A DNA stretch of 62,641 nucleotides, the filler included, from Candidatus Desantisbacteria bacterium CG1_02_49_89 (lineage in GTDB: Bacteria; Desantisbacteria; UBA1551), in NCBI GenBank assembly GCA_001871075.1. It is 5 parts of 5 records of this genome, joined end to end, with 100 filler letters (N's around TTAATTAATTAA, not from the genome) between each part and the next. Parts side by side here need not be neighbours in the genome. Positions count along the whole stretch, not along the records: positions 25,154 to 34,997 come from MNUP01000052.1; 4 more parts are not named here. The stretch is one strand, 5' to 3'. Below the pieces are notes generated by a model. That model was not told the origin of the DNA and did no database searches. It saw only the letters and a program-made list of their open reading frames with translations. Positions 10,506-40,195 of the stretch are shown in pieces; the first letter of the stretch is position 1, and the number at the start of each line of letters is the position of its first letter. The position numbers and the translations under genes were made by a program.

Positions 10506-10824
10506 GGCAAATGCCAAAATATAACAGATATTGTTATAAAATGACAAGAAAATAAATAAAGTGGACAGGTTCATTTATTTGCCAAAAAATAAAAAAGGTG
10601 TCAGGCATGCCCGCATGAATACCGTCAAGCGTCGAACGTCCCGCCTGCGCAGAAACCTTGACAGCCTTATCTCCCTGCTATTCGCAGGAAGGTAGCAAGT
10701 GCTACGGCGGGCAAGCTGAACGTCGTAAGTCGAACGTTGTCCGCCCGTCTTTTCAGCGGGCGAGATCTTGCCATGAATTCCGGGGACACAATACTTAATT
10801 GTTCAAAAAAGTGTGGCTGGTAAT

Positions 10825-13781: not shown

Positions 13782-14597
13782 ATGAAAAGAATAATATCGT
13801 ATAGCATCCTGATATCGGGATTGGCATTTACGAGTCTCTCCTATGCTTTCTTTGTCGGCTTCGGCGCATCAGGCGGGGCGGAGCAGGTGATAATAAAGGG
13901 CCAGGATGCGGGGGTGATTCCGAAGATCTCAGGTGAAAGTCTGCCACCCGGCGGCCCTAAACAGCTTACAAATGCAGAAACTGTGTGGCAGAAAATATAT
14001 GATAGCGGAAATGATGATTGTGGCTACGGCATTGCAGTCGATGATACTGGTAATGTTTACGTAGCAGGAAGTTCATATGTTGGCTCAACTGCTGATTTTC
14101 TGACAATAAAATATGATTCAAATGGAAATTCTGTTTGGCAGAGAAGATATGATGGTGGATGGAGAAGAACCATAATTTTTACATCTAATTCCTATGCAAT
14201 GGAAACAGAAACTACTGCTGCGGTAGTGGATTTAGAAGCAGGCGAGGGGATATCAAAAGGAACGGTGATGGCTCTCTCTGACTATCTCCGTGCCCAATTA
14301 TTTAATTCTCAAAGATTCACTCTTGTGACGAGAGAGAATATGGAACAGATTTTGGAGGAACAGCAATTTCAACTATCTGGATGCACAAGCCAAGAATGTA
14401 TCATCCAAGTAGGTAAATTATTGAACGTGTGTAAAATGTTCGCCGGTTCTGTGGGAAAGGTTGGTGCCACCTATGTCATTGCATTAAAAATTATTGATGT
14501 TGAGTCTGGAAGGGTTGAGAAAATAGAAACCGAGGAATGTCCCAGGTGCGAAGAGGATTCGTTGCTTATTTCTATTAAAAACATTGCTAATACCTGA
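13782..14597 (+). CDS. Chimeric secreted protein: conserved leader, SBBP repeat fragment, CsgG/FlgO-like domain
   Basis: Signal peptide; KYDSNGNSVW repeat; TRENMEQILEEQQFQLSGCTSQECIIQVGKLL motif. Confidence 0.7.
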   Translation: MKRIISYSILISGLAFTSLSYAFFVGFGASGGAEQVIIKGQDAGVIPKISGESLPPGGPKQLTNAETVWQKIYDSGNDDCGYGIAVDDTGNVYVAGSSYVGSTADFLTIKYDSNGNSVWQRRYDGGWRRTIIFTSNSYAMETETTAAVVDLEAGEGISKGTVMALSDYLRAQLFNSQRFTLVTRENMEQILEEQQFQLSGCTSQECIIQVGKLLNVCKMFAGSVGKVGATYVIALKIIDVESGRVEKIETEECPRCEEDSLLISIKNIANT

Positions 14598-25153: not shown

Positions 25154-25754
25154 CCTTTTCTCCCTCTATGCTGATGGATCTGATGTCGCTGACCCTCAGA
25201 GCCGTAACACCGCTGCCTGTCTTTAGCGTGACCCATTCTATCCTGGGCTCTAACAGGACCGGCTGCGGAACAAAATTAGGATAATAGCCATACTGCCCGT
25301 AGAAAGCGTTGCGGTCAGTGTTTTCCAGCCTTTCAGCCGGTTGCTGATAATACTGGAATCCTACCAATGTCCCTTTCAACTCCTGCTTGTCAGATGTTTG
25401 TATTACCGCTTTTTCTCCGGTGTTGCTTTTTATAAGGTCCTCGATCTTTACCATGGTCTCCTGATGGAAAATTTCCGTCTTCTGCGCCTTTATGGACTTA
25501 AGCGGCACGCCTTCCGTAAGGCTTGCCCCCCAGAAAGCGCCCAGGCTGGCGTCAGGTATCTCATCCAGGATTATCTGCCCGTTAACAAGCATTGATTTCC
25601 CCTCGCATCTCAGGTACGCGAACCCGTTCTTGAATATCACCGCCTCTTTTACTTCAGGGAACTGCGCCGTGTCAGCCGCGTTCACCGCCTGGCAGGCAGC
25701 ACCCGTTAAAAATAGCGTTAAAATTGCCGCAATAATCGCTTTTTTCATAGCCAT
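25154..25754 (-). CDS. Secreted DUF4140/DUF4139-like protein, N-terminal part (3'-truncated)
   Basis: Signal peptide, VKEAVIFKNGFAYL..G motif. Confidence 0.65.
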
Positions 25755-25865
25755 CCCCCCTATTATTAGCCTGCTCACGTATCTTTCGGAACTGTTTTTC
25801 ACCAATTCCACCTACAAGGCGAAATAGGTTTCTATAATAATTCAATATTCAAGAAGGTCTGACCC

Positions 25866-26837
25866 CTAAGCTCTTAAGCTGGCATGCAGGCGCGCAACCT
25901 GTTCTATGCTTTTATCAGACATCCTGCCGTCTTTGGAGATCGGGATATTCAGCGTTACCGCGCCGCCCGCCGCCTTGCATTCCTTCACCCAGTTGAACAG
26001 TGTCCTATCATCGTAGGAATAAGGCGCTCCCCAGGTAAACGTGGAATCCAGCGGAAGCAACGCGTGCCACTGCACGCCTCTGACAAAACGCGAATCAGGG
26101 GTATAAGTAGTATCTTTATCATTTCCGAACTTGATCTTTCCGTTATGAAGGTAATGGACCTCTCCCGCAAGGTAGTCTTCAAGTTTTGTGATGACCAGTT
26201 CTTTGTTGCCAAGGGGAAAGGCGGCATTGCTGAAAGTCACGATGGCACGGGGGTTTCCCGCCTTTGCGGCGGCGATCCATGAAGACCAGTCATATTTGAT
26301 CAGGGGATTGTAGTCACATTCATAACATCCGTCAAAGAACCAGCCGTCCAGCAGATCCCCGAACTTCAGCGCGTAGGCGCGCAGGAATTCCAGGTAGCGT
26401 TCCTGGAAAAGGACCTGGTCCGCGTCCCCGTATTTCCACTTGAAAACTTCCCTGATCTCTTCCATGTTTTCCCATTTATAGCCGACCTCTGACGGCAGGT
26501 ACGCGATGAAACGCTTGCCCGCGCGCTTTAACCTTTCGGCCAGGATCAGGGCGATGTCCCTTTCAGAAGTCCTTCCCGGGAGTTCTCTGTCAAGGAATTC
26601 ATTGGGGCTTATGTAATAACCGGTATTCTGACCGAGCGCGAAGATCAGCCAGTCAGCCCCGGTTTTGCTGAACTGCCTTAAAAATAACTCCGCGTCAAAA
26701 CCCCGCGCTATTTTATTGAAATTTTCCGTTTTTTCTTCAGGGGTATTCCCGTCCGGGATAAGCGGATCAGGCAAAATAAGGTAATGAACCATCAAACCGA
26801 AACTGCCTTTACTCATCCATTCCGCGGGATGCGCCAC
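25866..26837 (-). CDS. Alpha-L-fucosidase-like (GH29-like) TIM-barrel hydrolase
   Basis: FGLMVHY, FDAE, GWFFDG, GGAVTLN motifs. Confidence 0.7.
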   Translation of the reverse strand: MAHPAEWMSKGSFGLMVHYLILPDPLIPDGNTPEEKTENFNKIARGFDAELFLRQFSKTGADWLIFALGQNTGYYISPNEFLDRELPGRTSERDIALILAERLKRAGKRFIAYLPSEVGYKWENMEEIREVFKWKYGDADQVLFQERYLEFLRAYALKFGDLLDGWFFDGCYECDYNPLIKYDWSSWIAAAKAGNPRAIVTFSNAAFPLGNKELVITKLEDYLAGEVHYLHNGKIKFGNDKDTTYTPDSRFVRGVQWHALLPLDSTFTWGAPYSYDDRTLFNWVKECKAAGGAVTLNIPISKDGRMSDKSIEQVARLHASLRA

Positions 26838-26995
26838 CAGATCTCCTTTAGAACAAAAAAGTGTCAGACTGATTTCTGTCTTTTAGTAAAACTGAAATTC
26901 GTTATTTATCGACGTCGTCTTTATTGTAATCGGTGTAATCATTAGTTGGTAATCACTGTAATCATCAGTTATGCGAAGCAAAGATCGTCTTTAAT

Positions 26996-27020
26996 AAATA
27001 AATGAACCCGTCCCCTTTTT
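26996..27020 (-). repeat. Junction motif AAAAAGGGGACGGGTTCATTTATTT
   Basis: Directly after a stop codon; copies or variants at 10558, 29019, 30566, 31710, 32542, 33249, 35280, 36356, 36414, 37002. Confidence 0.8.
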
Positions 27021-28028
27021 CTAAGGTGAAAGTAATGCTCTTAACTCATCCGGCCCGCCAGCTGAAAGATTCGCACCGTAATAAAGCCGGTATTTATTTG
27101 CCGTTCCTTTTATCAAAATGACATCGGGGTCCATCAACGCTTCGACAGAACCTGAAGGAACGAGGATATTGCCTGACTCTAAGGTAAAATTCCTGCCGTC
27201 AGACGAAACCGCGGAACGGATCCTCAGGTCGCCTATGGGCTGGCCTTCGGGCGGAGTGGTGAAGAAAAACCAGTATGAGCCGCCGGGCTTCCTGACAATA
27301 TCCGGGTCGTTAACCTACCCGCCGATGGTCCCGCCGGTTATGGATATCTGCCCTTCCCTTGACCACGTCTGGCCCGAATCCGTGGAAGTAGCGGTATGAA
27401 CGCGGGAAATTAAGGGAGAAGCAACGAAATACATGCGCAGGGTGGAAGTGTTGTAATGGATCAGGTCGGGCACTGATACGAAACTGTCCTCGCCGGCATT
27501 CGCGACCATAACCGCCCCGCCTGTAAAGGGACCCGGTGTTTTTATGAAAGTTATGCCGTTATTTGAGACCGCGCGGTTCAGCCTCTCTGTGGTCGGCGAG
27601 TTTGTCTGGATCCCGTAGATCATCACGTAGTTACCGTCATCCATCCTGATGACGGATGGGTTTGTCGCTCCGAGATCTGAAATACCGGTGAACGTCTGCG
27701 ATTCCCAGAAAAGTCCGTCCGTGGAAACGGCGCTCCACAGACCGCCCGGAGCGGTAAAATACATCCTGTGCGTAATGCTGTCAGGCATAAGAATAGTGCA
27801 GGTGGAGGTCAGCGCTTTGGTATCGCCGTTCCACGTAAGGCTTTCCTTTGTCCAGGATGTAGAATATTGCGTCTCTCCGGGAGTTTTAGGGATCACGCCG
27901 GCTTCCTGGCCCTTTGTTATCACCTGCTCCGCCCCGCCCGAACTGCCGAAACCAACGAAAAAAGCGCAGGAAAAGCTCGTCAACGCCAACCCTGATATCA
28001 GGATACCGCAAAATATTACTTTTTTCAT
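27021..28028 (-). CDS. Secreted five-bladed beta-propeller (GH32/43-like fold) with in-frame TAG at 27315-27317
   Basis: Blades NPSV..YVMIY, VPDL..RMYF continue after the TAG as DPDIV..YWFFF..AVSSDG and DPDVI..YRLYY to a TAG at 27021-27023. Confidence 0.78.
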
Positions 28029-28096
28029 CGAAGAGTCATCCTCCCTGTTCTGGCTCGAAGATCCCTATGTTAAGCCCCGAAGGGGCTATAGGGACA
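28029..28096 (-). repeat. Family B element supplying the RBS of the propeller gene
   Basis: CCCTATAGCCCCTTCGGGGCTTAACATAGGG..GAGCCA-GAAC-AGGGAG-GA-TGACTC-TTCG-ATG. Confidence 0.75.
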
Positions 28097-28192
28097 AAAG
28101 AGTCATCCTCCCTGTTTGGAATCACGGAACCATTGATCCATTAACCAAATAAGGAACTATCTATTACCCGCTGCGTTTGATTGTCTGGCTTT

Positions 28193-28795
28193 TTATTTAC
28201 ATATTTTTCTGTTGTGCAAGGCATACGCCTCATCGATAAACTGCTCCATGGTCTTTTCCCCGGGAAGCGATGGTTTTTCATAATTGATATTGTATTGCTT
28301 TAACATCTCTATTTCCAGCTGCTCATTAGTTACCAACCCACCGCCCTCCAGGATGTGCTTTACCTTGATACCTCTCTTGGACAGATAGTGGGACACCAGG
28401 GCGAACCTGTGGCACTCAAAGGGATCGTCCTCGGAACACATTATGGCCGTCTTGCGTTGTTTTTTAAGAAGCTCCGCCACCCGGCCCAGCGCACTCTGAA
28501 AAGTGAGGGTTCTGCTCACCTTCTCGTAATCGACAACCCTGGTATTATTTATAAAAAGGGTTGGGTTGGTATAACGAGCCCCCAGGCGATCTCCCATGTA
28601 GATATATTCTATCCCCGAATACGTCAAATCCTTTGCCAGCGATTCCCTGTTGAACTGCTGAAGAACCCAGTTGCTGTAGGGGTTGCTCCTCACGTCGACG
28701 ACATACCCCACCTGGTGCTTGTCGAGGAGCCTGACGAAATAATCTATGTCGTGTCTGGAATGCCCGATTGTAAAACAGATCAGATTATCGTTCAT
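28193..28795 (-). CDS. DUF488-domain protein
   Basis: FTIGHS, VDVRSNPYS, AIMCSEDDPFECHR. Confidence 0.9.
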   Translation of the reverse strand: MNDNLICFTIGHSRHDIDYFVRLLDKHQVGYVVDVRSNPYSNWVLQQFNRESLAKDLTYSGIEYIYMGDRLGARYTNPTLFINNTRVVDYEKVSRTLTFQSALGRVAELLKKQRKTAIMCSEDDPFECHRFALVSHYLSKRGIKVKHILEGGGLVTNEQLEIEMLKQYNINYEKPSLPGEKTMEQFIDEAYALHNRKICK

Positions 28796-29043
28796 TTATT
28801 TTATACCTCGGGATTTTTATTTATGATTTCCCTTATCAGCTGTCTGCCCTACCTTTATCAATAGTAATGTATCTTTGACCCATGCTGTAATCTATTTTGA
28901 CCCATCCAAACTCCGAAATTATATCATAGAGTGGGTCAAATTTCAACTACAACTTCCGCCTAAATGGGTCAAATTTCGATTACATTACACAACCTTTTTT
29001 TATTACTGTCTCGTTAGTAAATAAATGAACCCGTCCCCTTTTA

Positions 29044-30348
29044 TCAGAAACAGCATGCCGGGACAAAAGCAATTTCGGTTGATCCGCGCTTTTCTAAACC
29101 CCGGTAATTCTTCGTGAGAATAATTCCCTTAGCGGGATCGTATGAACTGATAAAACTTGCGTAACTCCTGGATATCTTTGCGCCTTCAAACCTGGAAAAT
29201 TTAACCTCCACGGGGATCTCTTTTCCTTTTAAATGGAAGATAAAATCCACCTCAGCCCCTGCTTTCGTCCTCCAGAAGTTTATCCTGTCGCCGTCCCTGC
29301 GCAGTCCGTTCAGCCTTATAAATACCGCGTTCTCCACGACCGCGCCGCTGTCAGGGCGTTTTTCCAGCCCGTTCATATTCTCCATAAGGTTATTCCTGAA
29401 ACCCGGGTCAAGAAAAAATATTTTCGGGTTCTTCGTAAGCTCTTTCTGCCTGTTTCTGAAAAAGGGCCTTATTTCCCCGGTGATAAAAGTTTCCTGGAGG
29501 ATATTCAGGTGCTTCTTCAGCTGGCGGTAATCCAGCCCCGTTGCCTGGCTGAGCCCCTGATAGCTCACAAGGCTGCCTGCCTGCGCTGCCAGGATCCGGG
29601 AAAGCGAGAGGAGCTCTTTCTCGGTGGCCAGTTCCAGCAGTCCCTTGATGTCCCTGAGAATATAATTGCTGTAAAGGTCGTTAAGGACCTTGTGCCGCTC
29701 GTTTCTGTCAGCGCACAGGACCACGGCGGGATAACCTCCCCATACGCAGAATTCTTCGTAATGGCTGTTCAGCTCGCCGGCAAACGCGTCTTCGCCTTTT
29801 TCACGCGCTGCCTGCCTGTCCTCAAACAGCCAGACAAGAACCTCCGCACTCTTCTGCCGGTATATCCGTTCCGCGCGCGCGTCTTTCGCGCGCAGGAATT
29901 CGCCGAAACTGAAAGGATAGATGTTGAATGCCAGGATGCGCCCGACCATGTACTTGCCGACCTGCGCTTTTATGTCAAGCGAGGATGAACCGGTTATAAT
30001 GATCTTTATGTCCTTCATCGTGTCATATATCAGCTTCAGTTTCTGCCCGCCCTCTTCAGCATACTGAAATTCATCTATCATCAGGTACTGGATCTTACCC
30101 GGGACCAGAGGACAGTATGAACGGACAAATGAAACCGGTTCGGCCTCAAACTGAATAAGGAGCTTCCTGTCTTCAAAAGTCACGTTATGCACCGCGCCTT
30201 TGTCGGCCTTAAGGTTATTCACAAGGCAGTCTTTGAGCAGTCCCAGAAATGTTGTCTTGCCTGTCTGCCTGGGCCCGGTTATTGATATATATTCCTGCCT
30301 GTTAAGAAATGGCTTTATCTTTTCTAGCAGGTCCCTTTGAATTATCAT
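29044..30348 (-). CDS. AAA_14 ATPase with C-terminal DUF4143 (PD-(D/E)XK-like) domain
   Basis: GPRQTGKTT, IDEFQ, TGSSS, GGYP, KIFFLDPG, EVDF..PVEVK. Confidence 0.92.
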   Translation of the reverse strand: MIIQRDLLEKIKPFLNRQEYISITGPRQTGKTTFLGLLKDCLVNNLKADKGAVHNVTFEDRKLLIQFEAEPVSFVRSYCPLVPGKIQYLMIDEFQYAEEGGQKLKLIYDTMKDIKIIITGSSSLDIKAQVGKYMVGRILAFNIYPFSFGEFLRAKDARAERIYRQKSAEVLVWLFEDRQAAREKGEDAFAGELNSHYEEFCVWGGYPAVVLCADRNERHKVLNDLYSNYILRDIKGLLELATEKELLSLSRILAAQAGSLVSYQGLSQATGLDYRQLKKHLNILQETFITGEIRPFFRNRQKELTKNPKIFFLDPGFRNNLMENMNGLEKRPDSGAVVENAVFIRLNGLRRDGDRINFWRTKAGAEVDFIFHLKGKEIPVEVKFSRFEGAKISRSYASFISSYDPAKGIILTKNYRGLEKRGSTEIAFVPACCF

Positions 30349-30599
30349 TTATACCTCACTTTTAATGCAATTATTACAATTATAGTATACCTAATTTTGC
30401 AATAAAGTCAAGGAAAAAACCCAATTTTCAAACTTAGAGACGAAGATCCCAGCAGCTTAATCCCGATTTATCGGGATTAGCAGGGGCCAAGGAAAAAGTG
30501 AAAAACCTCTCCCACCTACGAGGTGGAACAGGTCTCGTCTTTAGCCGCGGGCCCCTGCCGGCTGGAAAAATAGAACCGTCCCCCTTTTTCCTAATCATT

Positions 30600-30785
30600 C
30601 TATGATCTTTTACGGCTAAATAGTCTGATAACGGCAGAAACAACAAACCAGATGCCGAAAACAAACGTCATCGTGAAAAATACCGATTCTTCAACCTTCC
30701 AGATACCGTATATGACGTTATGCAGAACAGCGCAAGCCGCAGCCACGGCCAGAAACCAAAAGGGATTTTTGATTCTTTTCAGCAT
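30600..30785 (-). CDS. Small two-TM membrane protein
   Basis: AAGGA RBS; two hydrophobic helices around LHNVIYG..EESVFF. Confidence 0.6.
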   Translation of the reverse strand: MLKRIKNPFWFLAVAAACAVLHNVIYGIWKVEESVFFTMTFVFGIWFVVSAVIRLFSRKRS

Positions 30786-30920
30786 TGCGGTTCATATCCT
30801 TTATTTACTATTGTAGATAGTGAAATGTCAAGACCTGACCCCAGCTACTTACGACGGTATTTAAAGAATTAAGTAATGTGTCCCCGGAATTACACGTTAC
30901 CCCTTTTTATTCTATAGTTT

Positions 30921-30944
30921 AAAAAAACCCGCTTTTAGCGGGTT
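30921..30944 (-). terminator. Intrinsic terminator after HEPN gene
   Basis: AACCCGCT-AAA-AGCGGGTT followed by T-run on minus strand. Confidence 0.7.
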
Positions 30945-31001
30945 GAAATTTTCTTATAACTCTTTTATCCTTGGGCCTGGTATATTATCTCCGCTTTAAG
31001 G

Positions 31002-31334
31002 CTATTTTTTAACCTCATTTAGATTTCTCTTTAAGCCGCTGATTTCCGTTTCAACTACCTTCCAGGCAAGCTCCAGGTCTATGCCGAAATATTCATGGAT
31101 GAGGATGTCCCTCATTCCGGCGATCCGCTTCCAGGGAATGCCCGCGTATTTATCCTTTATATCGCCGGGAAGGTTTTTCGCGGCTTCCCCGATAATCTCG
31201 ATCCTGCGTATAACGGCATCCTGCAGCTGTTTTGACGCCAGGAAATCAGCTTTTGATTTTCCTTTTGTGTATTCTTCGATAAGCTCTATGCACTCAAGTA
31301 TGTGTTTAATAAAAACCTGCGCGTCCTTTTTCAT
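31002..31334 (-). CDS. HepT-like DUF86 HEPN ribonuclease toxin
   Basis: EIIGEAAK..IPWKRIAGMRDILIHEYFG (R-x4-H). Confidence 0.92.
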   Translation of the reverse strand: MKKDAQVFIKHILECIELIEEYTKGKSKADFLASKQLQDAVIRRIEIIGEAAKNLPGDIKDKYAGIPWKRIAGMRDILIHEYFGIDLELAWKVVETEISGLKRNLNEVKK

Positions 31335-31612
31335 AAAATAACTCTCTGTTCCCTTAAGATCCTGTCCCTGAGAAGCGGGTAAAGGGAGTTGTAGGTAAGA
31401 ACGTCGACTTTTCTTTTTAATGTCTCTTCAAGCTCGATTTTAAGCCCTGAAAGGTCGAGCAGGCTTTTACTGCCTTTAAATTCCACAAGAAGGTCTATAT
31501 CGCTTTTTTTAGTTGCCCTGCCGTTTACAACGGACCCGAAAAGAGAAGCTCTTTTTACATCGTTCTTTATAAGAATAGGTACAATTTTATTTTTAATCTC
31601 CTCGAAGCTCAT
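31331..31612 (-). CDS. MntA-like minimal nucleotidyltransferase antitoxin
   Basis: LFGSVVNG..SDIDLLVEF..KVDVLT; ATGA overlap with HEPN. Confidence 0.92.
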   Translation of the reverse strand: MSFEEIKNKIVPILIKNDVKRASLFGSVVNGRATKKSDIDLLVEFKGSKSLLDLSGLKIELEETLKRKVDVLTYNSLYPLLRDRILREQRVIL

Positions 31613-31659
31613 TTTATCTCCTGATTATTCCGTCTAATTCAACTTTTTTGAACATAAAC

Positions 31660-31688
31660 ATTATACCATATTTAGCCTGAAAAGTCAA
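31660..31688 (-). promoter_or_regulatory. Sigma70 promoter of MNT-HEPN
   Basis: TTGACT-17-TATAAT with TG extension; near-identical to 33210-33238. Confidence 0.75.
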
Positions 31689-31725
31689 ATCGCCCGTTAA
31701 CCGTTTATTAAGGGGGACGGTTCTA

Positions 31726-32421
31726 TTATTCCGGCACCAAAGACTTCCTGGGCCGTCCTCTTCCCTTAAACTTATCGGTTACCCCGAACAATTCCTCCAT
31801 CTGCGCGGTGAATTCTGTGTTGCCGTAGAAATACCTTCTTGTAACAGAAGGATCGCTTTCCCTTTTCCAGCTTTCTTTTGAAAGCACGAAATCCCGGTAC
31901 AGCTCCTTCCTTATCTTAAGATCATTCGAGAGCCCTTCATAAGCCGGCTGGGGATCCAGCAGCTTATTGACGCTGTCCTGGGTATAGAACCTGTAACTGC
32001 TCCAAAGATAGTCTTCCGGCTTCTGCGCCATCCCTGCCCTTACAGGATTTAATTCAATGTACGCGGCGCACTCAAGCAGATACTCGTCTTTGCTTATAAG
32101 TATGCTCTTAAACCTGTCCTGCCAGAAATGGCCGAAGTGCTTGTACTTCTTCTTGTAATACTGGGCGTATGACAGGTTCAAAAGCTTCATTGCTTCAGAA
32201 AGGCTTGCCTGGCTGTCCGTTATTTCAATGATCAGGTGGACGTGGTTGTCCATCAGGACGTAGTGGTACAGCAGGAACTTGAAGCGGTCTTTGCACATTT
32301 CCAGGACTTCCAGGTATTCAAGAAAATCCCTTTCATCGTGGAATACGTTAACCTTATTGTTGCCTCTTGTGATTATATGGTAAACGCCCTCATGGTTGAA
32401 TATCCGAGCTGCTCTTGGCAT
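31726..32421 (-). CDS. REP-associated tyrosine transposase (RAYT-like, Y1 HUH superfamily)
   Basis: YHIITRGNNK, YVLMDNHVHL (HUH), FWQDRFKS, YIELNPVRAGM, YLWSSY, GRPRK tail. Confidence 0.92.
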   Translation of the reverse strand: MPRAARIFNHEGVYHIITRGNNKVNVFHDERDFLEYLEVLEMCKDRFKFLLYHYVLMDNHVHLIIEITDSQASLSEAMKLLNLSYAQYYKKKYKHFGHFWQDRFKSILISKDEYLLECAAYIELNPVRAGMAQKPEDYLWSSYRFYTQDSVNKLLDPQPAYEGLSNDLKIRKELYRDFVLSKESWKRESDPSVTRRYFYGNTEFTAQMEELFGVTDKFKGRGRPRKSLVPE

Positions 32422-32570
32422 CCAGATTCCTCTTAATTATTGCTGATTTTCGCTGATTTTATCTTTAATAATCACTGTCCATAAAGGATCCCTGCGTCTT
32501 GCTTTCAAGAAAAAGCAGCAGGGATAATCATCTTTAAAAGAAATAATGGAACCGTCCCCCTTTTTAAATA

Positions 32571-32597
32571 AAAAGCCGTCATTTATTTGACGGCTTT
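32571..32597 (-). terminator. Intrinsic terminator after hicA
   Basis: AAAGCCGTCA-loop-TGACGGCTTT plus T-run. Confidence 0.7.
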
Positions 32598-32619
32598 AGA
32601 ATTAAAAACGTTCATTAAT

Positions 32620-32859
32620 CTATAACTTACCTTTTCTCTTTATTCTGAGAAATTCCCGGATAGAAAGATGCGCCCTTTTGATCTGCGCGCGCAGCAAGCC
32701 GGGCGCCACCTCACCGTGATCGGGTATAACAAGAATAGGATAACCTTCTCTGTCGTTCACAAGAATAATATGGCTTCCTTCCTGCCTGGCAGCGTAATAC
32801 CCTATCTTCTGGAAAATTTTTACAGCTTCTCTGCCGGAAATATTGCCAAGAGTGCCCAT
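32620..32859 (-). CDS. hicA: HicA-family toxin
   Basis: ISGREAVKIFQKIGY..RQEGSHIIL..IPDH..GLLRAQIK. Confidence 0.88.
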   Translation of the reverse strand: MGTLGNISGREAVKIFQKIGYYAARQEGSHIILVNDREGYPILVIPDHGEVAPGLLRAQIKRAHLSIREFLRIKRKGKL

Positions 32860-33090
32860 TTAAACTCCGGCGGTAACAGGAACATTAATGTAGGTTGTTT
32901 TGATCTCCTCAACCGGTATGCGGCGGTGTTTTTTTCTTGCGACCTTTAAATATCCTGAAACGGCTTCCCTGATATTATCCAGCGCTTCCTCTTTCGTCTT
33001 GCCCTGAGACATGCATCCGGGAAGCATTGGAACCCCGGCGACGTATCCGCCGTATTCAATATCATACTCCAGTTCAACCTTGAATTTCAT
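32860..33090 (-). CDS. hicB: HicB-family antitoxin (short, no DNA-binding domain)
   Basis: GGYVAGVPMLPGCMSQGKTKEEALDNIREA. Confidence 0.9.
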   Translation of the reverse strand: MKFKVELEYDIEYGGYVAGVPMLPGCMSQGKTKEEALDNIREAVSGYLKVARKKHRRIPVEEIKTTYINVPVTAGV

Positions 33091-33209
33091 TCCAGCGCTC
33101 CTTTTAGATCAAATGTACTATCTCGGAATTCCCCCTGCCTTAACCCTCTGCATTAATGGGAGAGGGATGGGTGAGGGTGAGTTTTGTGACATCCTGTTTT
33201 ATTTGCTTA

Positions 33210-33238
33210 ATTATACCATATTTCAGCTTAAAAGTCAA
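33210..33238 (-). promoter_or_regulatory. Sigma70 promoter of hicBA
   Basis: TTGACT-17-TATAAT. Confidence 0.75.
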
Positions 33239-33315
33239 CTATACTGGAAATAATAGAACCGTCCCCCTTTTTGGGTATTAATAGGTGACACCCTAGCTTT
33301 TGCTTACGCAGAGAT

Positions 33316-34341
33316 CTATTGTTTCTCCAGACCCTTGCTCATATATTCTTTCATCTTCAGACGCGCCTGGCCTATCCTTTTGAACTTTTTAACAAGCACG
33401 ACGTCTATGCCGAAAGCAAGGCGGACGGGTTCCAGCAATGCCAGGAACTCTCCATTAGTGACAAACACCTTTTCAGGCATGGATTTTACTTCCCGGATTA
33501 TCTCAAGGAATTGCCTGGTGAACTCGTTTTCGTATTCCTTTGACGGGTGCAAAAGGTGGGTCTTCAGGATAAAGTCCGCGCCGGAGTCCATCCACAAGAA
33601 GATGCGGCCGTAAAAGGGCCTGTTAGTCCCATCCTTTACAGGAACAGGGGAATAGAAGCTGTGGACTTCCCATGTCCCCTTCTTCGCGCCTATATCCTGT
33701 TTGATCCTGCCAGCCTCTTCCCTGTCAAGGGGCTTGGCAGACAGTGCTGCGCGATCCTCAGCCGGGGGTGTAAACCACCGGTCTGTCCATGTTACGCCGC
33801 TGTCTTCCCTTTGAGACATTCTTGCAAAGAATTCGCCTGGTTCCGGGGGACTGAACATGCGGGGGTTAGCTTTAAAACGAGGGTATACCTCCATTACCTG
33901 ACTGAGCGCAAGGCTCATATACCTTGCCTGCTCACCGGTTAAGTGCCAGGGGAAGTAGCCGGGCAGGTAGCTCCTGATGAGCGGGCAGAGCTGAGATTCG
34001 TTAAGATGAAAGCCAAGGGAGTCAAGCAGCTTAAGATCCTCGCCTGGCAAGCAGCTTCTGCGCTCAAAGGTCAGGTTCAAGGTCTTCTGGACATGCATGA
34101 GGTCAGGATCCTCAGGGTCAAACCTTTCCCTGAATATCCTTAAGTACGCCTTCAAGCCCTCTGTCCCGAGGTATACGACAAGGCCGTATTCATTCCTGGC
34201 GTTGCCCAATACGCAGCAGTAGCCCATCTGGCCGGTCTGCGGGTCCTGGATTCCGAACAGGTCAGAATCTGTCATACATTTCCAGGGCGCAAGGTCCCTG
34301 AATTTAAGGCTTAACTTGTATAATTCCTTCTGGTCTTCCAC
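33316..34341 (-). CDS. Conserved hypothetical protein
   Basis: AAGGAG RBS; APW..D.DLFG..DP..YCCVLG..GL..YLG N-terminal motif and PGYFPW. Confidence 0.75.
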   Translation of the reverse strand: MEDQKELYKLSLKFRDLAPWKCMTDSDLFGIQDPQTGQMGYCCVLGNARNEYGLVVYLGTEGLKAYLRIFRERFDPEDPDLMHVQKTLNLTFERRSCLPGEDLKLLDSLGFHLNESQLCPLIRSYLPGYFPWHLTGEQARYMSLALSQVMEVYPRFKANPRMFSPPEPGEFFARMSQREDSGVTWTDRWFTPPAEDRAALSAKPLDREEAGRIKQDIGAKKGTWEVHSFYSPVPVKDGTNRPFYGRIFLWMDSGADFILKTHLLHPSKEYENEFTRQFLEIIREVKSMPEKVFVTNGEFLALLEPVRLAFGIDVVLVKKFKRIGQARLKMKEYMSKGLEKQ

Positions 34342-34451
34342 AAATTCTCCTTATTTCATAAAAAACAGTCTTTGTCAAATTTAGCCGTTTCCCAGGTAAT
34401 TAAGTATTGTGTCCCCGGAATTAGTTCCTGGTCACTGGATACTGTTTCTAA

Positions 34452-34997
34452 TCACCTGTATTCATAAAAAGTGCATGTGTATTCCAGGCTGGCCTTCTCG
34501 TCCGGCTTCAGGGTCTTCGTCCATTCCACGCAGGAGATGGGATTTATTGACTGGTAATACCCGTAATAACTCCACCAGCCCCCGTAATAGTCCCTGCGCA
34601 CCCCTTCCCACAGCTTCTTTATAAGGTTCTCCCATCCCTGTGCAGACGCTTCGCTCCTGCCCCCGGAAGACACCTCCGCGACCTTGCCCAGCACGTGCCT
34701 TTTGACGGTTACGCTTACATCCGTCTTTTTCTTGTTCGTCACCAGGATCGTCCCCTTCACGGTCACCATATCCCAGGACCTGCCCATCGAGGTGATGGCG
34801 TTGTTCTGGCGGCTTGCCTCTATCTCGTTTATGGTGCTGAGGATGTCGCTTGCGATGGTCACCGGCATTATTGTGCGGCCCCTGGGCGGGGAGTAGTCTA
34901 TCTTTTCCTGCACAAGCATCTGCCCCTGCTTGAATATGGTTGCCGGGGCAGTGGTAATGGGCTCTGCCGTCTGGTTCATTACCACTAACTTGTGCCA
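34452..34997 (-). CDS. DUF4139-like protein, C-terminal part (5'-truncated)
   Basis: N.T..PITTAPATIF..Y.P.G..VEWTKTLKPDEKASLEY. Confidence 0.65.
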   Translation of the reverse strand, partial: WHKLVVMNQTAEPITTAPATIFKQGQMLVQEKIDYSPPRGRTIMPVTIASDILSTINEIEASRQNNAITSMGRSWDMVTVKGTILVTNKKKTDVSVTVKRHVLGKVAEVSSGGRSEASAQGWENLIKKLWEGVRRDYYGGWWSYYGYYQSINPISCVEWTKTLKPDEKASLEYTCTFYEYR

Positions 34998-35097: not shown

Positions 35098-35349
35098 ACT
35101 CCTTCCGAAATTCCCTTATCGGGGTTCGCTGAATCAAGCTTCGTCGGTCAGTTTCGGCTTTCCTCCTTATCGCAATCGGGAATTTGCAGCTGCGCCTGCG
35201 CTTAGGTCTGCTGCGCAAAGGCCCTTATTATATACTCATTGTATTTATTGTATTATACGACAACATTTGGAGAAGACCCAAGGTTCTTTATAGGCAGGGG
35301 CGGTTCTATTTTCCTTAATTTTGACTGTATGTTGAAAAGGAGTTGACCG

Positions 35350-36357
35350 ATGAAAAATAAAGAAAATAAATCTGATTTAATAATCTATCAGACTGAAGAC
35401 GGAAAAATTAAAATTGATGTTCGTTTTCAAAATGAGACGGTCTGGCTGACCCAGCAGCTGATGGCAGAACTGTTTCAGACTACCAAGCAGAACATCAGCC
35501 TCCATGTTCAAAATATTTACGAGGAAGGAGAACTAATGCCTAAGGCAACTGTCAAGGAATTCTTGACAGTTCAAATAGAAGGCACAAGGCCGGTCGAAAG
35601 AAAAATTGATTATTATAATCTTGATGTCATTATCTCAGTCGGTTATCGGGTGAAGTCGTTGCGCGGGACACAGTTCCGTATTTGGGCCACACAGCGGTTG
35701 AAAGAATATATCGTTAAAGGGTTTACGCTGGATGATGAGCGGCTCAAGCAGGGCGGCCAGAAAGCGCGGTATTTCCAGGAACTTTTGCAGCGTATCCGCG
35801 ATATACGCAGCAGTGAGCGCAATTTTTACCAGAAAGTTACCGATATTTACGCCACCAGCATTGATTACCGCGAAGACAACGAGTTAACCAAAGAATTTTT
35901 CGCGACCGTGCAGAATAAAATGCACTACGCCGTTCACGGCCATACTGCCGCTGAGATAATCATAAAACGCGCGGATAGCGGGAAACCGCTGATGGGGCTT
36001 ACAAGTTTTAAGGGTAATTACATTACAGCGCAGGATACCAGGGTTGCTAAAAATTATCTTACCGAAAATGAACTGAAACAGCTTAATTTGATCGTGTCGC
36101 TGTACCTGGACTTCGCGGAACTGCAGGCAACCAACGGCAGATTGATGAAAATGGCGGATTGGATAGCGAAACTTGATGAATTCTTGAAGTTAAGCGAACG
36201 AAAGCTTTTGGCTAACGCCGGAAGCATAAGCGCCGAACAAGCCGCCCAAAAGTCTGAAGAAGAATTCGAAAAATACAGAAAAGGAAGAGATAAGAATTAT
36301 ATTAGTGATTTTGACAAGATTGTTAAAAAGATTGGGGATGGAAGAAAGAAGAAATAA
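35350..36357 (+). CDS. RhuM-family protein
   Basis: ETVWLTQQLMAELFQ, YNLDVIISVGYRVKS, FRIWAT, IRSSE. Confidence 0.92.
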   Translation: MKNKENKSDLIIYQTEDGKIKIDVRFQNETVWLTQQLMAELFQTTKQNISLHVQNIYEEGELMPKATVKEFLTVQIEGTRPVERKIDYYNLDVIISVGYRVKSLRGTQFRIWATQRLKEYIVKGFTLDDERLKQGGQKARYFQELLQRIRDIRSSERNFYQKVTDIYATSIDYREDNELTKEFFATVQNKMHYAVHGHTAAEIIIKRADSGKPLMGLTSFKGNYITAQDTRVAKNYLTENELKQLNLIVSLYLDFAELQATNGRLMKMADWIAKLDEFLKLSERKLLANAGSISAEQAAQKSEEEFEKYRKGRDKNYISDFDKIVKKIGDGRKKK

Positions 36358-36476
36358 AGGGGACGGGTTCATTTGATTAAAAGGTTCAAAGAAAGAAACG
36401 TTCTTAAAAGCAAAAGGTTCTTTATAGGCAGGGATGGTTCTATTTTTCTATTTAATTCACAAGGAGAGGATAAACA

Positions 36477-36974
36477 ATGAAAGCAATAATCCCGCAGGAA
36501 ATAATTGAAAAAAAGGTCTTATTGATCCGCGGACACAAGGTAATGCTGGATAGGGATTTAGCTGAATTATATGGAGTAGAAACAAAGCAACTAACCCGGC
36601 AGGTCCGCAGAAATATAGATAGATTCCCTACTGATTTTATGTTTCAGCTTACAAGGGAAGAATTTACAAACTTGAAGTGCCATTTTGGCACCTCAAGTTG
36701 GGGTGGCATTAGATATCTACCTTATGTTTTTACCGAGAACGGCGTGGCCATGCTTTCCTCGGTGTTAAGCAGTAAAAGAGCAATACAGGTCAATATTGCT
36801 ATTATGCGTGTTTTTACCAGATTGAGAAAAATTCTCTCCACCCACACAAGGGTTGCCTATAAATTAAAAGAGCTCGAAAGAAAAATAGAAAAACACGATG
36901 AAGATATAACGGCGATTTTCGAGGCAATCCGCCAAATAATGATAGTGGAAGAAAAGCCGAAAAAGCAAACATGA
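36477..36974 (+). CDS. ORF6N-domain protein
   Basis: IRGHKVMLDRDLAELYGVET, RNIDRFPTDFMFQL, FTENGVAMLSSVL. Confidence 0.92.
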   Translation: MKAIIPQEIIEKKVLLIRGHKVMLDRDLAELYGVETKQLTRQVRRNIDRFPTDFMFQLTREEFTNLKCHFGTSSWGGIRYLPYVFTENGVAMLSSVLSSKRAIQVNIAIMRVFTRLRKILSTHTRVAYKLKELERKIEKHDEDITAIFEAIRQIMIVEEKPKKQT

Positions 36975-37105
36975 GAAAATTCGGAATTTCCGAATTTTCT
37001 AAAATCGGGGACGGTTCTAATTAATTTAGCAAAAATATGATTTAACCCCCCGCGGCTTGCCGCGGGGTAATTCAAAGCTAAGGTGTAATACAAGAGGGAA
37101 TAAGA

Positions 37106-38266
37106 ATGGCTGAGCAGGTAGGTTATGAACCGGAAGAGCTGATCCAACACGCGGTTATTCATTTCAAGAAGCGGCGTTATGCCACAGCCCAGCTGTTCTG
37201 GTGTGTTGCTCTTGAGAACTATATCAGGAAAAAGTTCATAGGGATAAAAAGGAAGGAGCCGGAAGACGATGACACGATAGGTTCTATGTTAAAGCAGATC
37301 AAAGAGGTAAGGGGCCCCGGTGACTGGTACTCGAAAAATCAGGATATGCTCTGGAATTTCGTCAGGAAAAGAAATGATATAACGCACAGGTCGTTTATTT
37401 CAGAAGAGAAGGAACTGAAAAGCCTGCTCGAAGGCCTTGTGGCGTTAATAAGCGGAAAGACCGAAGAATTAGACGATATAATAAAAAGGGTTGATCCTGA
37501 ACTGACTACAAGGCTTGGGCTTAAGTTCCATGACCGCACAGAGCCGGACAAGGAGCTGCTTAAGAAGCTCGAGACTATTTCTGCCGATGATTTTAACAGG
37601 GATGATTACGCGTTTTCATTGATCATATGGAGATTAAAGGAAATAATTGACAATATACTGAAAAACAAGGCTTCGGAAGACAGGAATTTCAAGGGTTTGA
37701 CAACAGGCCTGGTTTCCGAGTTCACGGTCAGCAGCGACTGGATATGGCTTCCAGTGGGTTTTGGCATAGAAAAGGAGAACAAGAGGGTAAAGAAGCCGAT
37801 CATCAGTGTTATGCTGATCCGCAACAGGACCGCCAGGGTCTACCTTGACTTTGGCACAGAGGCAACGCCTTACAGGCGCAAATACTACAGCCTTTTGCAG
37901 AGTGACCCGGCTTTCAAGGATATGTTCAGGGAATTATGCGATAATTGCCCTGATATTACCGAGTTTTTCAACGTGGAGCATTACACGGTCATCCTGGAGC
38001 AGGAGAAGATACCTATAGGAAAATGGCTTAAGGGTGATCCGGCTTGCTGCGAAAGCGTGAGCAGGTGCATAAGAAAGGCAAGGGCGATCCTGGATGGCCT
38101 GGAAAGCCAGAAAAGGAACGAATGGCGCGACAACGTCCTGCTTTTCGGCAGGAAATTCAACCAGGACTATTTCACCCAGCCGCGCGAAATCGAATCTTTT
38201 GCTTCCGATATAATCAATGTTATCGAGTTGCTCCTTCCATTTCTGAAAGCAATTGAAGCTAATTAG
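37106..38266 (+). CDS. Hypothetical protein with N-terminal HEPN-like domain
   Basis: A..W.VALE..RKRNDITH (R-x4-H) helical N-terminus; C-terminus unrecognised. Confidence 0.65.
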   Translation: MAEQVGYEPEELIQHAVIHFKKRRYATAQLFWCVALENYIRKKFIGIKRKEPEDDDTIGSMLKQIKEVRGPGDWYSKNQDMLWNFVRKRNDITHRSFISEEKELKSLLEGLVALISGKTEELDDIIKRVDPELTTRLGLKFHDRTEPDKELLKKLETISADDFNRDDYAFSLIIWRLKEIIDNILKNKASEDRNFKGLTTGLVSEFTVSSDWIWLPVGFGIEKENKRVKKPIISVMLIRNRTARVYLDFGTEATPYRRKYYSLLQSDPAFKDMFRELCDNCPDITEFFNVEHYTVILEQEKIPIGKWLKGDPACCESVSRCIRKARAILDGLESQKRNEWRDNVLLFGRKFNQDYFTQPREIESFASDIINVIELLLPFLKAIEAN

Positions 38267-39790: not shown

Positions 39791-40195
39791 TATTGCCCCT
39801 GCAGCTGCTCATGATCCCCCCTACTTTTTTTCGAAAGTGACAGGGGGGACCTACAAGCCAGAGTAGTATTTTGTCCCTGTAGCCCCTTCGGGGCTTAATA
39901 CAGGGATTTTCGAGTCAGAACGAGGCAAATGACTCTTCAATCGATGGCTCTTCGGCGCAGGGGCCTGCGCGCCAGAATCCTGCCAGCTCCAAAAGAGCTC
40001 AACGGCAGGACCTACGAATCAGAACGGAGCTGATGATTCTCCGGCTGGGTGAATGGTAACCTATTGCCCCTGCAGCTGCTCATGATCCCCCCTACTTTTT
40101 TTCGAAAGTGACAGGGGGGACCTACAAGCCAGAACTTAGACGATGGCTCTTCGGCGCAGGGGCCTACGCGCCAGAGCTAAGCGGATGGCGCTCCG
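39791..40195 (+). repeat. Tandem, recursively nested family B elements
   Basis: ~72-nt direct repeat (39791/40062) plus six CCTWCG-like linker/stem-GARC modules. Confidence 0.85.

Follow-up and report, generated by a model that had tools for sequence, protein, structure and literature searches.

What makes a run of unrelated, co-oriented genes in a groundwater bacterium look like the cassette array of an integron? The question is raised by a 62,641-base stretch of DNA from Candidatus Desantisbacteria bacterium CG1_02_49_89 (the whole stretch is called the window below), in which N44-TTAATTAATTAA-N44 spacers link five contigs of a single assembly, and within it by the contig at 25154-34997, where short oriented motifs stand between the genes. 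A sequence-only reading had described the genes of this contig as co-oriented and functionally unrelated, and this is confirmed: all called genes are on the minus strand, and a gene-family scan, which covered 47 open reading frames (ORFs) of the window, assigns them to the differing families HepT/MNT, HicA/HicB, AAA_14+DUF4143, DUF488, Y1_Tnp and DUF7309+DUF6930, besides several ORFs without a family. The same reading had taken the motifs for the junctions of an integron-like system in which a HUH transposase captures and shuffles cassettes. This mechanism was not borne out, as the motifs fit a published class of repeats, occur in other genomes as doublets and as solo copies behind ordinary genes, and no cassettes are shared with the 401 genomes sampled. 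Instead, the locus is probably a TIRtron accompanied by dispersed solo copies of three repeat families with GGGGWSAS-type heads, in an accessory island that varies between strains. The TIRtron would consist of a Y1/HUH gene resembling those of tyrosine transposases associated with REPs (RAYTs; REP, repetitive extragenic palindromic) within an inverted pair of a ~25-nt repeat, M1, and the junction motifs are further M1 copies plus two sister families, M2 and M3, with heads of the type GGGG(A/T)(C/G)A(C/G).

Three repeat families in the window

On the gene strand, M1 reads AAAAAGGGG(G)ACGG(G)TTCyATTATTT. The window contains eight clear copies, which belong either to type A (cores at 27004 and 29027 on the minus strand and at 36359 on the plus strand) or to type B (30573, 32549 and 33256, minus; 31712 and 37007, plus), as well as two degenerate copies at 35296 and 36430. 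The M1 core GGGGACGGKTC is matched five times, compared to a mean of 0.06 in shuffled sequences, and none of 100 shuffles attained five matches. M3 (AATTCCGGGGACACAwTACTTAATT) is represented by three 25-nt copies that are 96% alike over 26 nt. Units of M1 and M3 are 24-38 nt long and 84-96% alike, e.g., the M1 copies at 29019 and 26988-27019 share 94% identity over 32 nt. Of the junction motifs named in the sequence-only reading, M1 and M3 are above chance, whereas the 8-mer of M2, GGGGTCAG, is not (two matches versus 1.31, and 37 of 100 shuffles attain two). Head motifs (GGGGWSAS or GGGGACGG) are about six times denser between genes, with 15 in 10.4 kb of intergenic DNA and 12 in 51.9 kb of genic DNA.

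None of the three families has a GTAG head or folds on itself. The fold z-scores of seven of the eight M1 copies, taken as solo units, range from -1.15 to +1.0, and the fold of the eighth comes from adjoining hairpins. A search of Rfam at E<=1 gave no match to the motif, its sole return being a sub-threshold STnc430. As had been claimed, no member of the M1, M2 or M3 family lies in the window's polysaccharide cluster or in its housekeeping part. Two other gene runs had been said to be punctuated by the same motifs; this is so for 35350-38266, where M1 copies stand between the genes, but the contig at 7692-14687 contains a single M3 (10776) only. This M3 copy is located in frame just past an ATG able to lengthen a TPR gene by 13 codons (MNSGDTILN...; 10774-10812, plus strand).

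Could the motifs be low-complexity coincidences, or the outcome of chimeric joins within a metagenome bin? It is true that GGGGTCAG alone stands at chance level in the window, and that the window is made up of short contigs of a metagenome-assembled genome (MAG) which break at repeats. Against this stand the excess of M1 cores over shuffled sequences and the length and likeness of the M1 and M3 units. Independent metagenome contigs (L049-L051 and L053) also match the contig at 99.8-100% identity, 20 of the 24 groundwater/aquifer runs listed contain at least half of its sampled words, and homologous genes elsewhere have the same motif on their flanks (see below). For M1 and M3, chance and artefact can be ruled out, and as an explanation of the locus they have a negligible probability.

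A Y1/HUH transposase gene within an inverted M1 pair

The transposase gene of the contig (Table 1) matches the Pfam family Y1_Tnp with an E-value of 7.9e-16, and its product contains the HUH motif NHVHL and the catalytic-tyrosine helix YIELNPVRAG, both of which are conserved in orthologues. The protein scores above the cutoff of the NCBIfam model REP_Tyr_transpos (NF047646; 83.5 bits, cutoff 80) and below that of transpos_IS200 (NF033573; 19.5 bits, cutoff 55). A sequence search of PDB with the transposase returned no matches. The gene is bracketed by an inverted pair of M1 copies with 27-nt arms (31704-31730 and 32542-32568) that are 89% complementary to each other, and the contact of M1 with the transposase stop codon recurs at loci L037 and L039. 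Thus, the sequence-only reading was right to tie the motifs to a RAYT-type Y1/HUH transposase, since inverted M1 copies surround the gene here and in five other genomes. The five M1 copies that it listed, however, did not include the inverted copy at 31712, which is the partner of 32549 around the transposase gene.

Enzymes of the M1 class are short (225-242 aa), and all of them (window and L037-L041) carry a basic GRP(K/R)K end, which in the window transposase takes the form of the C-terminal tail GRGRPRK (31726-31770). This tail, which we take to be AT-hook-like, would fit the AT-rich flank of M1.

The hairpin element between the upstream M1 copy and the transposase start is kept in a relative (L052, 85-90% identical) that has none of the motifs in 13 kb; there it lies without adjoining M1 or RAYT gene and is 87% identical (L052 2200-2270 versus 32534-32464). 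Loose ends at 32464 were seen in the runs X1, X4 and X13. More generally, GATGATTAC/GTGATTAy (GTAATC) repeats together with the CCCTGC...GCAGGG hairpin element recur beside M1 (26926-26970 and 32464-32541), and both are present in the M1-free relative as well (L052:2170-2270).

The repeats and their enzymes in other genomes

Scanning 596 Gb of species-representative genomes with a 19-nt M1 pattern (18 bases plus Y) yielded 33 loci (L001-L033), which are labelled Omnitrophota, Aminicenantes, Syntrophia/Smithella, Nitrospirae, Planctomycetes, WOR-3 and Clostridia-type MAGs. A scan of viral contigs with the 19-mer gave no match. Many of the 33 loci are inverted doublets whose copies lie a few tens of bases apart. 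At three of them (L023, L024 and L027), a RAYT homologue of 45-48% identity is located within an inverted M1 pair, and at L005 a 34% identical homologue lies beside the M1 match. In the genomes G001-G005, the top RAYT homologue of each genome (41-49% identity) has inverted M1 singles or doublets on its flanks in five out of five cases; an inverted M1 bracket is seen at L037-L041. Several phyla share an identical 19-nt core, whereas identity among the corresponding enzymes is no more than 41-49%.

Four more distant paralogues of the transposase (L042, L045, L046 and L047; 38-41% identity) lie between inverted repeats with the head GGGGTCAG(G/A/C)(T/C)CT, i.e., M2, and the extended M2 form GGGGTCAGGTCT matches inverted repeats that flank RAYT paralogues of other genomes. 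Two of these M2-class paralogues combine Y1_Tnp with Bac_DnaA_C (37.2 bits in L042, cutoff 31.5; 29.6 bits in L047). Because it flanks RAYT paralogues elsewhere, M2 is a real sister family despite its uninformative 8-mer. The 25-mer of M3 was found exactly in one other genome (G243), and no M3 enzyme was found. In G243 the 25-mer closes a 16-codon mini-ORF (L092:1460-1515).

Among 401 sampled genomes of the Omnitrophota phylum, 71 contain an M1 15-mer, compared to nine single matches for a reversed control, and the other 330 are without a copy. Most of the positive genomes have one to five copies; counts of 8-15 were found in several, of 32-34 in two and of 189 in one. The highest number belongs to G002 (96 forward and 93 reverse copies), while G001 has 34. 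In 362 kb of G002, the copies form 31 clusters, of which 20 are simple convergent doublets, seven are larger and four are singles, three of these within ORFs; the clusters occupy spacers between co-oriented, convergent and divergent genes alike. Seeming M1 singles in G001 turned out to be diverged ~80-nt doublets that enclose a GTAG-headed hairpin. In both genomes, the doublets are ~45-85 nt long, non-coding, bounded by terminal inverted repeats and present in tens to hundreds of copies. Those of G001 (L074-L083) resemble miniature inverted-repeat transposable elements (MITEs) with the centre GTAGCTGACGTTTAAACGTCAGCTAC, i.e., a canonical REP-like hairpin inside TIRYT-type inverted repeats.

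Solo copies lie at stop codons in sense orientation

The co-orientation of the motifs with the genes, one of the features that had suggested cassettes, was seen for 12 of the 13 repeat-family members in the window. Contacts with stop codons, likewise noted before, are real: a stop codon touches or overlaps a motif at five places, including 25866, 27021, 29044 and 36355, and the stop codon at 30600 is 10 nt off. When only intergenic solos outside RAYT flanks are counted, all six in the window have a co-oriented 5' gene. The same holds for 11 of 14 such solos at L001-L033 (16 of 20 counting RAYT flanks) and for ten of the 11 solos at L085-L090, which are direct solo arrays in three other genomes. 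Direct solo arrays resembling that of the window are found in G254, G365 and G404. At loci of other genomes, the stop codon frequently lies within TAAAGGGGACGG.

The genes ahead of the solos in the L085-L090 genomes are ordinary ones, encoding a thiamine pyrophosphate (TPP)-dependent enzyme, a GDSL lipase, response regulators, a PMT glycosyltransferase and pilin-like proteins. Since solos stand behind ordinary chromosomal genes elsewhere, the cassette-like geometry belongs to the repeat itself, at whatever site it is inserted. A 323-aa gene beside motifs in both the window and G365 was considered as a common gene and rejected, as the two proteins are not homologous.

We regard the strong sense orientation of solo copies, on or just past stop codons and in many genomes, as the most useful new observation. 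The bias points to a transcription- or replication-coupled insertion by a single-strand enzyme, or else to a host function at gene ends. Candidate causes are strand-specific insertion by such an enzyme, selection against other sites in short spacers, and a gene-end function.

In the case of a host function, the solos would be kept at gene ends without being mobile at present and would serve, in RNA or DNA, as a 3'-end signal, for instance as an insulator, a transcript-end element or a site bound by a protein. In an alternative form of this proposal the motif would be part of the next gene's promoter, as RAYT-proximal copies are directly followed by a TTGACA -35 box. Sense bias and stop contact in 27 of 31 solos outside RAYT flanks, across genomes and phyla, would suit such a role, and so would the identity of the 19-mer in several phyla compared to the low identity of the enzymes. 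TTGACA or TTGACT follows the motif at L020, L024, L027, L038 and L039 and at 33256 and 30835 in the window, but the spacing to the next promoter varies. According to passages of Di Nocera 2013 (BMC Genomics 14:522; PMC3733652), REPs are situated mainly downstream of the coding sequence, with a presumed role as RNA elements; the solo motif studied here, however, is unstructured and has no Rfam match. Moreover, copy numbers that range from 0 to 189 among related genomes are what is typically seen with mobile repeats, not with a conserved signal, and most of the sampled phylum genomes do without the motif altogether. We consider a host function unlikely as the explanation of the locus; it is compatible with the one that we favour, because domesticated repeats can do both.

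A TIRtron with dispersed repeats, the favoured explanation, would work as follows. The repeats would be non-autonomous, and their cognate Y1 enzyme, acting in trans, would cut and rejoin single-stranded DNA and so spread them. They come to lie directly 3' of stop codons, within the short spacer and in sense to the upstream gene. In some genomes they have expanded to hundreds of hairpin-forming doublets, while the copies observed in this genome are mostly solo. The cassette-like look of the contig would then arise because many solo repeats lie in an island of small self-contained modules, such as toxin-antitoxin (TA) pairs, with promoters of their own. In addition, the repeats may double as rearrangement breakpoints between strains.

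Strain variation and the question of gene capture

An integron-like system would turn the direct solo copies of M1, M2 and M3 into recombination sites. Single-strand cutting and rejoining by the Y1/HUH enzyme at two same-sense copies would yield a single-stranded circle with one repeat, which would be reinserted behind a stop codon, so that gene segments are excised, reinserted and shuffled as co-oriented cassettes. Such a system would be an integrase-free, HUH-driven counterpart of the integron, and it would account for the sense orientation, the stop contact, the direct solo arrays and a breakpoint at an M1 edge. The copies are indeed direct and co-oriented, abut stop codons and number one per junction; every module comes with a promoter of its own, and comparable direct solo arrays exist in G254, G365 and G404. 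Passages of Quentin 2018 (BMC Genomics 19:475; PMC6006769) also state that IS608-type Y1 enzymes go through single-stranded circular intermediates. However, elsewhere the motif occurs chiefly as hairpin doublets, which lie between genes of every kind, and solos of the same geometry follow ordinary chromosomal genes.

Comparison with other strains yielded differences, some of them at or near the motifs. Contig L050, which is 99.9% identical over 7.4 kb, parts from the window exactly at the inner M1 edge (32544/32545): the window reads GGGGGACGGTTC|CATTATTTCTTTT and L050 reads ...AGAAGAG|CCATTTCTTTT, with other DNA where the window has the HicBA/DUF7309 block. The unitig graph branches at nodes 31706-31735 and 32515-32544, at or beside M1 copies, and the depth of unitig 32515-34506 is ~0.3-0.6 of that of its neighbours (6.65 versus 10.6-19.6 in X1 and 15 versus 34-57 in X4). 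In the motif-free L052, a gap of 25 nt separates the 61-aa ORF from DUF488; two blocks are missing there, namely the AAA_14 block, which is M1-flanked in the window, and the one with RAYT and MNT/HepT. A contig from run X9 shows the 61-aa ORF and DUF488 in the same arrangement as in L052. The exact M1-edge breakpoint, the lowered depth in two runs and the blocks missing from L052 would all fit an exchange of cassettes.

Nevertheless, the L050 junction coincides with the edge of another repeated element (32464-32544), and therefore a repeat-mediated join or a mis-assembly is possible. All block boundaries are intergenic and three of the six lie within 20 nt of a motif, which is not clearly above chance because motif windows cover an estimated one third of the contig's intergenic DNA. 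The variable blocks contain several genes and end in differing motif types, and no hybrid of types A and B was found among the eight M1 copies. A DNA search with the whole contig against the 401 genomes gave only 64-83% identity within the bodies of three gene families and no shared cassette; as regards close relatives, amino acid identities among the 5 and 401 genomes searched were at most 64-69% for GlyQ and 54-64% for AspS. These values place the organism probably within the Omnitrophota phylum, with no close relative among the genomes searched. Thus, gene blocks do differ between strains and one break falls on an M1 edge, as the idea of motif breakpoints had it, but the events are too few for motif-driven capture.

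Circular junctions, which the sequence-only reading had proposed to look for, did not stand up. A contig from run X9 joined 34997 to 25154 through 644 nt with one reading frame kept, as if from a 10.5-kb circle. This circle was rejected, as the 644 nt past 25154 in L051 enter a 94.7%-identical copy of 34997-34452 and then unrelated DNA; the end-to-end joint is not circular because it is explained by a paralogous flanking gene. The raised unitig depth of the contig ends (~2.5 times) also speaks against the circle. Joints that 'go back' or 'skip' (30890->26992, 30892->26919, 26943->29019, 34423->30866 and 25682->30817) were discarded as evidence of circles or rearrangements because they rest on 30-41 matching letters in M1, M3 or GTAATC repeats. 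Stretches of the contig that lack cover in X9 and X13 were likewise set aside. No credible circle junction was seen in the contigs from the runs, on which, rather than on raw reads, the run comparison was based. Taken together, integron-like shuffling is a very unlikely explanation of this locus. If the repeats did mediate the exchange of gene blocks, they would constitute a new gene-capture route, which the present data do not show.

Gene content of the island

Two ~616-aa paralogous genes form the edges of the island, one with its N-terminal part (25811->25154) and the other with its C-terminal part (34997->34452). Both flanking paralogues are in direct orientation, and their C-terminal parts are 94.7% identical (25154-25811, 34452-34997, L051:7154-8343). 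Unitig depth at the contig ends is ~2.5 times that of the interior.

Two TA pairs with their own promoter and terminator had been proposed for the contig, and both were recovered. Strong matches to an own promoter were found for the two TA pairs, for the AAA_14 gene and for DUF488, and a terminator hairpin follows each TA pair. The promoters of the unrelated MNT/HepT and HicBA pairs (31660-31688 and 33210-33238, minus strand) are 86% identical over 29 nt (TTGACTTTTmAGsCTrAAATATGGTATAAT), and this near-identity suggests a common promoter module. The DUF488 promoter is surrounded by four TTTGACCCA / TGGGTCAAA boxes that resemble operator sites (28860-28990, minus strand); the 200-nt promoter region with these boxes is not present in L052.

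Several further features of the island and its surroundings are worth recording. The frame of a 237-aa ORF (27315-28028, minus strand) runs 97 codons further past a lone in-frame TAG at 27315-27317, so that 27021-28028 may be a pseudogene, or else a single gene of ~335 aa whose stop is premature or read through. A unit of ~67-78 nt at the 5' end of a lipoprotein-like gene (28029-28106) is found again at 39869-39941 and 13782-13924, and in L052 this unit forms ~5 tandem repeats (934-1283). The adjoining contig (35350-38266, plus strand) carries RhuM-family and ORF6N/Rha-like genes, regulators of phage or island type, with M1 copies between them.

Table 1. Coordinates of the transposase gene, repeat copies and other features, counted along the window.
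Feature	Position	Strand	Context
RAYT/TIRYT-type Y1 HUH tyrosine transposase, 231 aa	31726..32421	-	Only Y1_Tnp gene in the window
M1 type B, upstream member of the pair	32542..32566	-	
M1 type B, downstream member of the pair	31707..31731	+	Overlaps the transposase stop codon
~78-nt hairpin element (CCCTGC...GCAGGG)	32464..32541	-	Between M1 and transposase start; recurs in other contexts
Solo M1 type A	26996..27020	-	Abuts TAG stop 27021-27023 of gene 27021-28028
Solo M1 type A (GGGGACGGGTTCATTTATTT)	29019..29042	-	Abuts AAA_14 stop, TGA 29044-29046
Solo M1 type B	30566..30589	-	10 nt past the stop of the 61-aa membrane ORF
Solo M1 type B	33249..33272	-	43 nt past the DUF7309 stop, directly upstream of the HicBA promoter (33238-33210)
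Solo M1 type A, next contig	36356..36379	+	Overlaps TAA stop of RhuM-family gene 35350-36357
Solo M1 type B	37001..37022	+	Past ORF6N gene 36477-36974, same orientation
Degenerate M1-like unit (AAGGTTCTTTATAGGCAGGGGCGGTTCTATTTTCCT)	35280..35315	+	Upstream of the RhuM gene
Degenerate M1-like unit, second copy	36414-36449		Upstream of the ORF6N gene; direct repeat with 35280-35315 (36 nt, 92%)
M2 copy (GGGGTCAGGTCTTGACA...)	30825..30842	-	Upstream of the 61-aa ORF
M2 copy, second	25858-25867		Overlaps TAG stop of gene 25866-26837
M3 copy (AATTCCGGGGACACATTACTTAATT)	30867..30892	-	Motif at 30878
M3 copy	34398-34423	-	Motif at 34409
M3 copy	10776-10800	+	
Accessory-island contig	25154..34997		All called genes on minus strand; from N-run joins and ORF calls
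MNT/HepT toxin-antitoxin pair	31002..31612	-	MNT 31331-31612, HepT 31002-31334; own promoter 31688-31660, terminator 30944-30926
HicB/HicA toxin-antitoxin pair	32620..33090	-	HicB 32860-33090, HicA 32620-32859; own promoter 33238-33210, terminator 32597-32572
61-aa membrane ORF; AAA_14/DUF4143 ATPase; DUF488	28193..30785	-	30600-30785; 29044-30348; 28193-28795

Comparison with known systems

Passages of Di Nocera 2013 (PMC3733652) describe RAYT-like genes with terminal inverted repeats in place of REP hairpins, naming the units TIRtrons and the enzymes TIRYTs. According to the same passages, some TIRtron repeats have a common GGGGWSAS, and the families occur as singles, dimers and groups and are 'moderately abundant'. 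In parts of Quentin 2018 (PMC6006769), TIRYTs appear as TnpA-Y1 subclass 2.1, with C-terminal helix-turn-helix (HTH) domains, a wide taxonomic spread and the flanking consensus GGGG[AT][CG]A[CG] in the majority of their repeats; as excerpts of this literature have it, subclass 2.1 corresponds to RAYT group 1 of Bertels 2017 (PMC5581495). The present locus agrees with this picture in that non-palindromic inverted repeats enclose a Y1/HUH gene, with one of them overlapping the gene end, and in that the head GGGGWSAS is exact in M2 (GGGGTCAG) and M3 (GGGGACAC). Further repeat copies are dispersed as singles, dimers and groups, there are several paralogous enzymes per genome, each with its own repeat, and the taxonomic spread is wide and patchy.

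A number of observations weigh against our assignment. The head of M1, GGGGACGG, which flanks the window gene, agrees with GGGGWSAS at seven of eight positions. Unlike subclass 2.1, the M1-class enzyme has no detectable HTH domain, as no such family was found at E<=0.1 in the window transposase, L037 or L041, and it ends in the GRP(K/R)K tail instead. Solo M1 has no hairpin of its own, whereas characterised Y1 enzymes recognise hairpins, and the M1 copies of the window are nearly all solo and direct, whereas doublets dominate in G001 and G002. About nine of the 33 scan matches are expected by chance by our estimate, and about eight lie within ORFs and may be such chance matches. Finally, some strain differences coincide with motif edges, a coincidence that passive repeats do not require. 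Judged by its flanks, the window enzyme appears to be TIRYT-like; with respect to subclass 2.1 it may be called 2.1-like only, given the missing HTH domain. Two properties also set the repeats apart from published TIRtrons: M1 attains 189 copies in one genome, unlike families described there as 'moderately abundant', and the sense orientation and stop-codon contact of solo copies are not among the TIRtron features that the passages of PMC3733652 and PMC6006769 describe.

The REP/REPIN-RAYT systems (Nunvar 2010; Bertels & Rainey 2011; E. coli TnpA-REP) share with this locus a single-copy Y1 gene flanked by its own inverted repeat, extragenic repeats that are mostly downstream of genes and often form hairpin-capable inverted doublets, and a protein above the REP_Tyr_transpos cutoff. 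In contrast to REPs, the M1 unit is not a palindrome and lacks a 5' GTAG head, a GTAG hairpin being found only inside the ~80-nt doublets of G001. In contrast to REPINs, the copies in the window are solo and direct apart from the pair that flanks the RAYT gene, while doublets are the main form in G001 and G002. CGTC-tagged REP families were considered as well, since CGTC is present on the reverse strand of M1, and do not fit: passages of PMC3733652 describe them as hairpins with an 8-9-bp stem and without a dedicated transposase. A literature search found no work linking Omnitrophota with repetitive extragenic palindromic repeats.

With the IS200/IS605 family (IS608, ISDra2) the system has in common the HUH+Tyr fold and, going by parts of PMC6006769, the cutting and joining of single strands and a strand-specific insertion that gives oriented copies. 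It differs from this family in that the IS200 model failed, subterminal hairpin ends are lacking, and a single gene in the window is vastly outnumbered by the repeats.

Integrons resemble the contig in their co-oriented, unrelated TA and accessory genes, often with an own promoter, and in a short oriented site that is able to overlap a stop codon. The sequence-only reading had itself remarked that neither IntI nor attC is visible here, and this was upheld: no IntI/integrase family was found among the 47 ORFs scanned, and a crude regular expression with an arm-pairing test found no attC-like RYYYAAC...GTTRRRY site in the window, compared to 1.55 in shuffles. Moreover, the sites of the window are 25 nt long and unstructured, and in other genomes they lie behind ordinary genes and form doublets, unlike those of an integron.

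The M1 doublets of G001 and G002 are MITE-like as non-coding units with terminal inverted repeats, but their presumed mobiliser is a Y1/HUH enzyme and not a DDE transposase. Compared with all of these systems, the locus most probably adds a well-documented example, from uncultured groundwater bacteria, to the little-studied TIRYT/TIRtron class, with three sister repeat families of which M1 and M2 are each linked to an enzyme class of their own.

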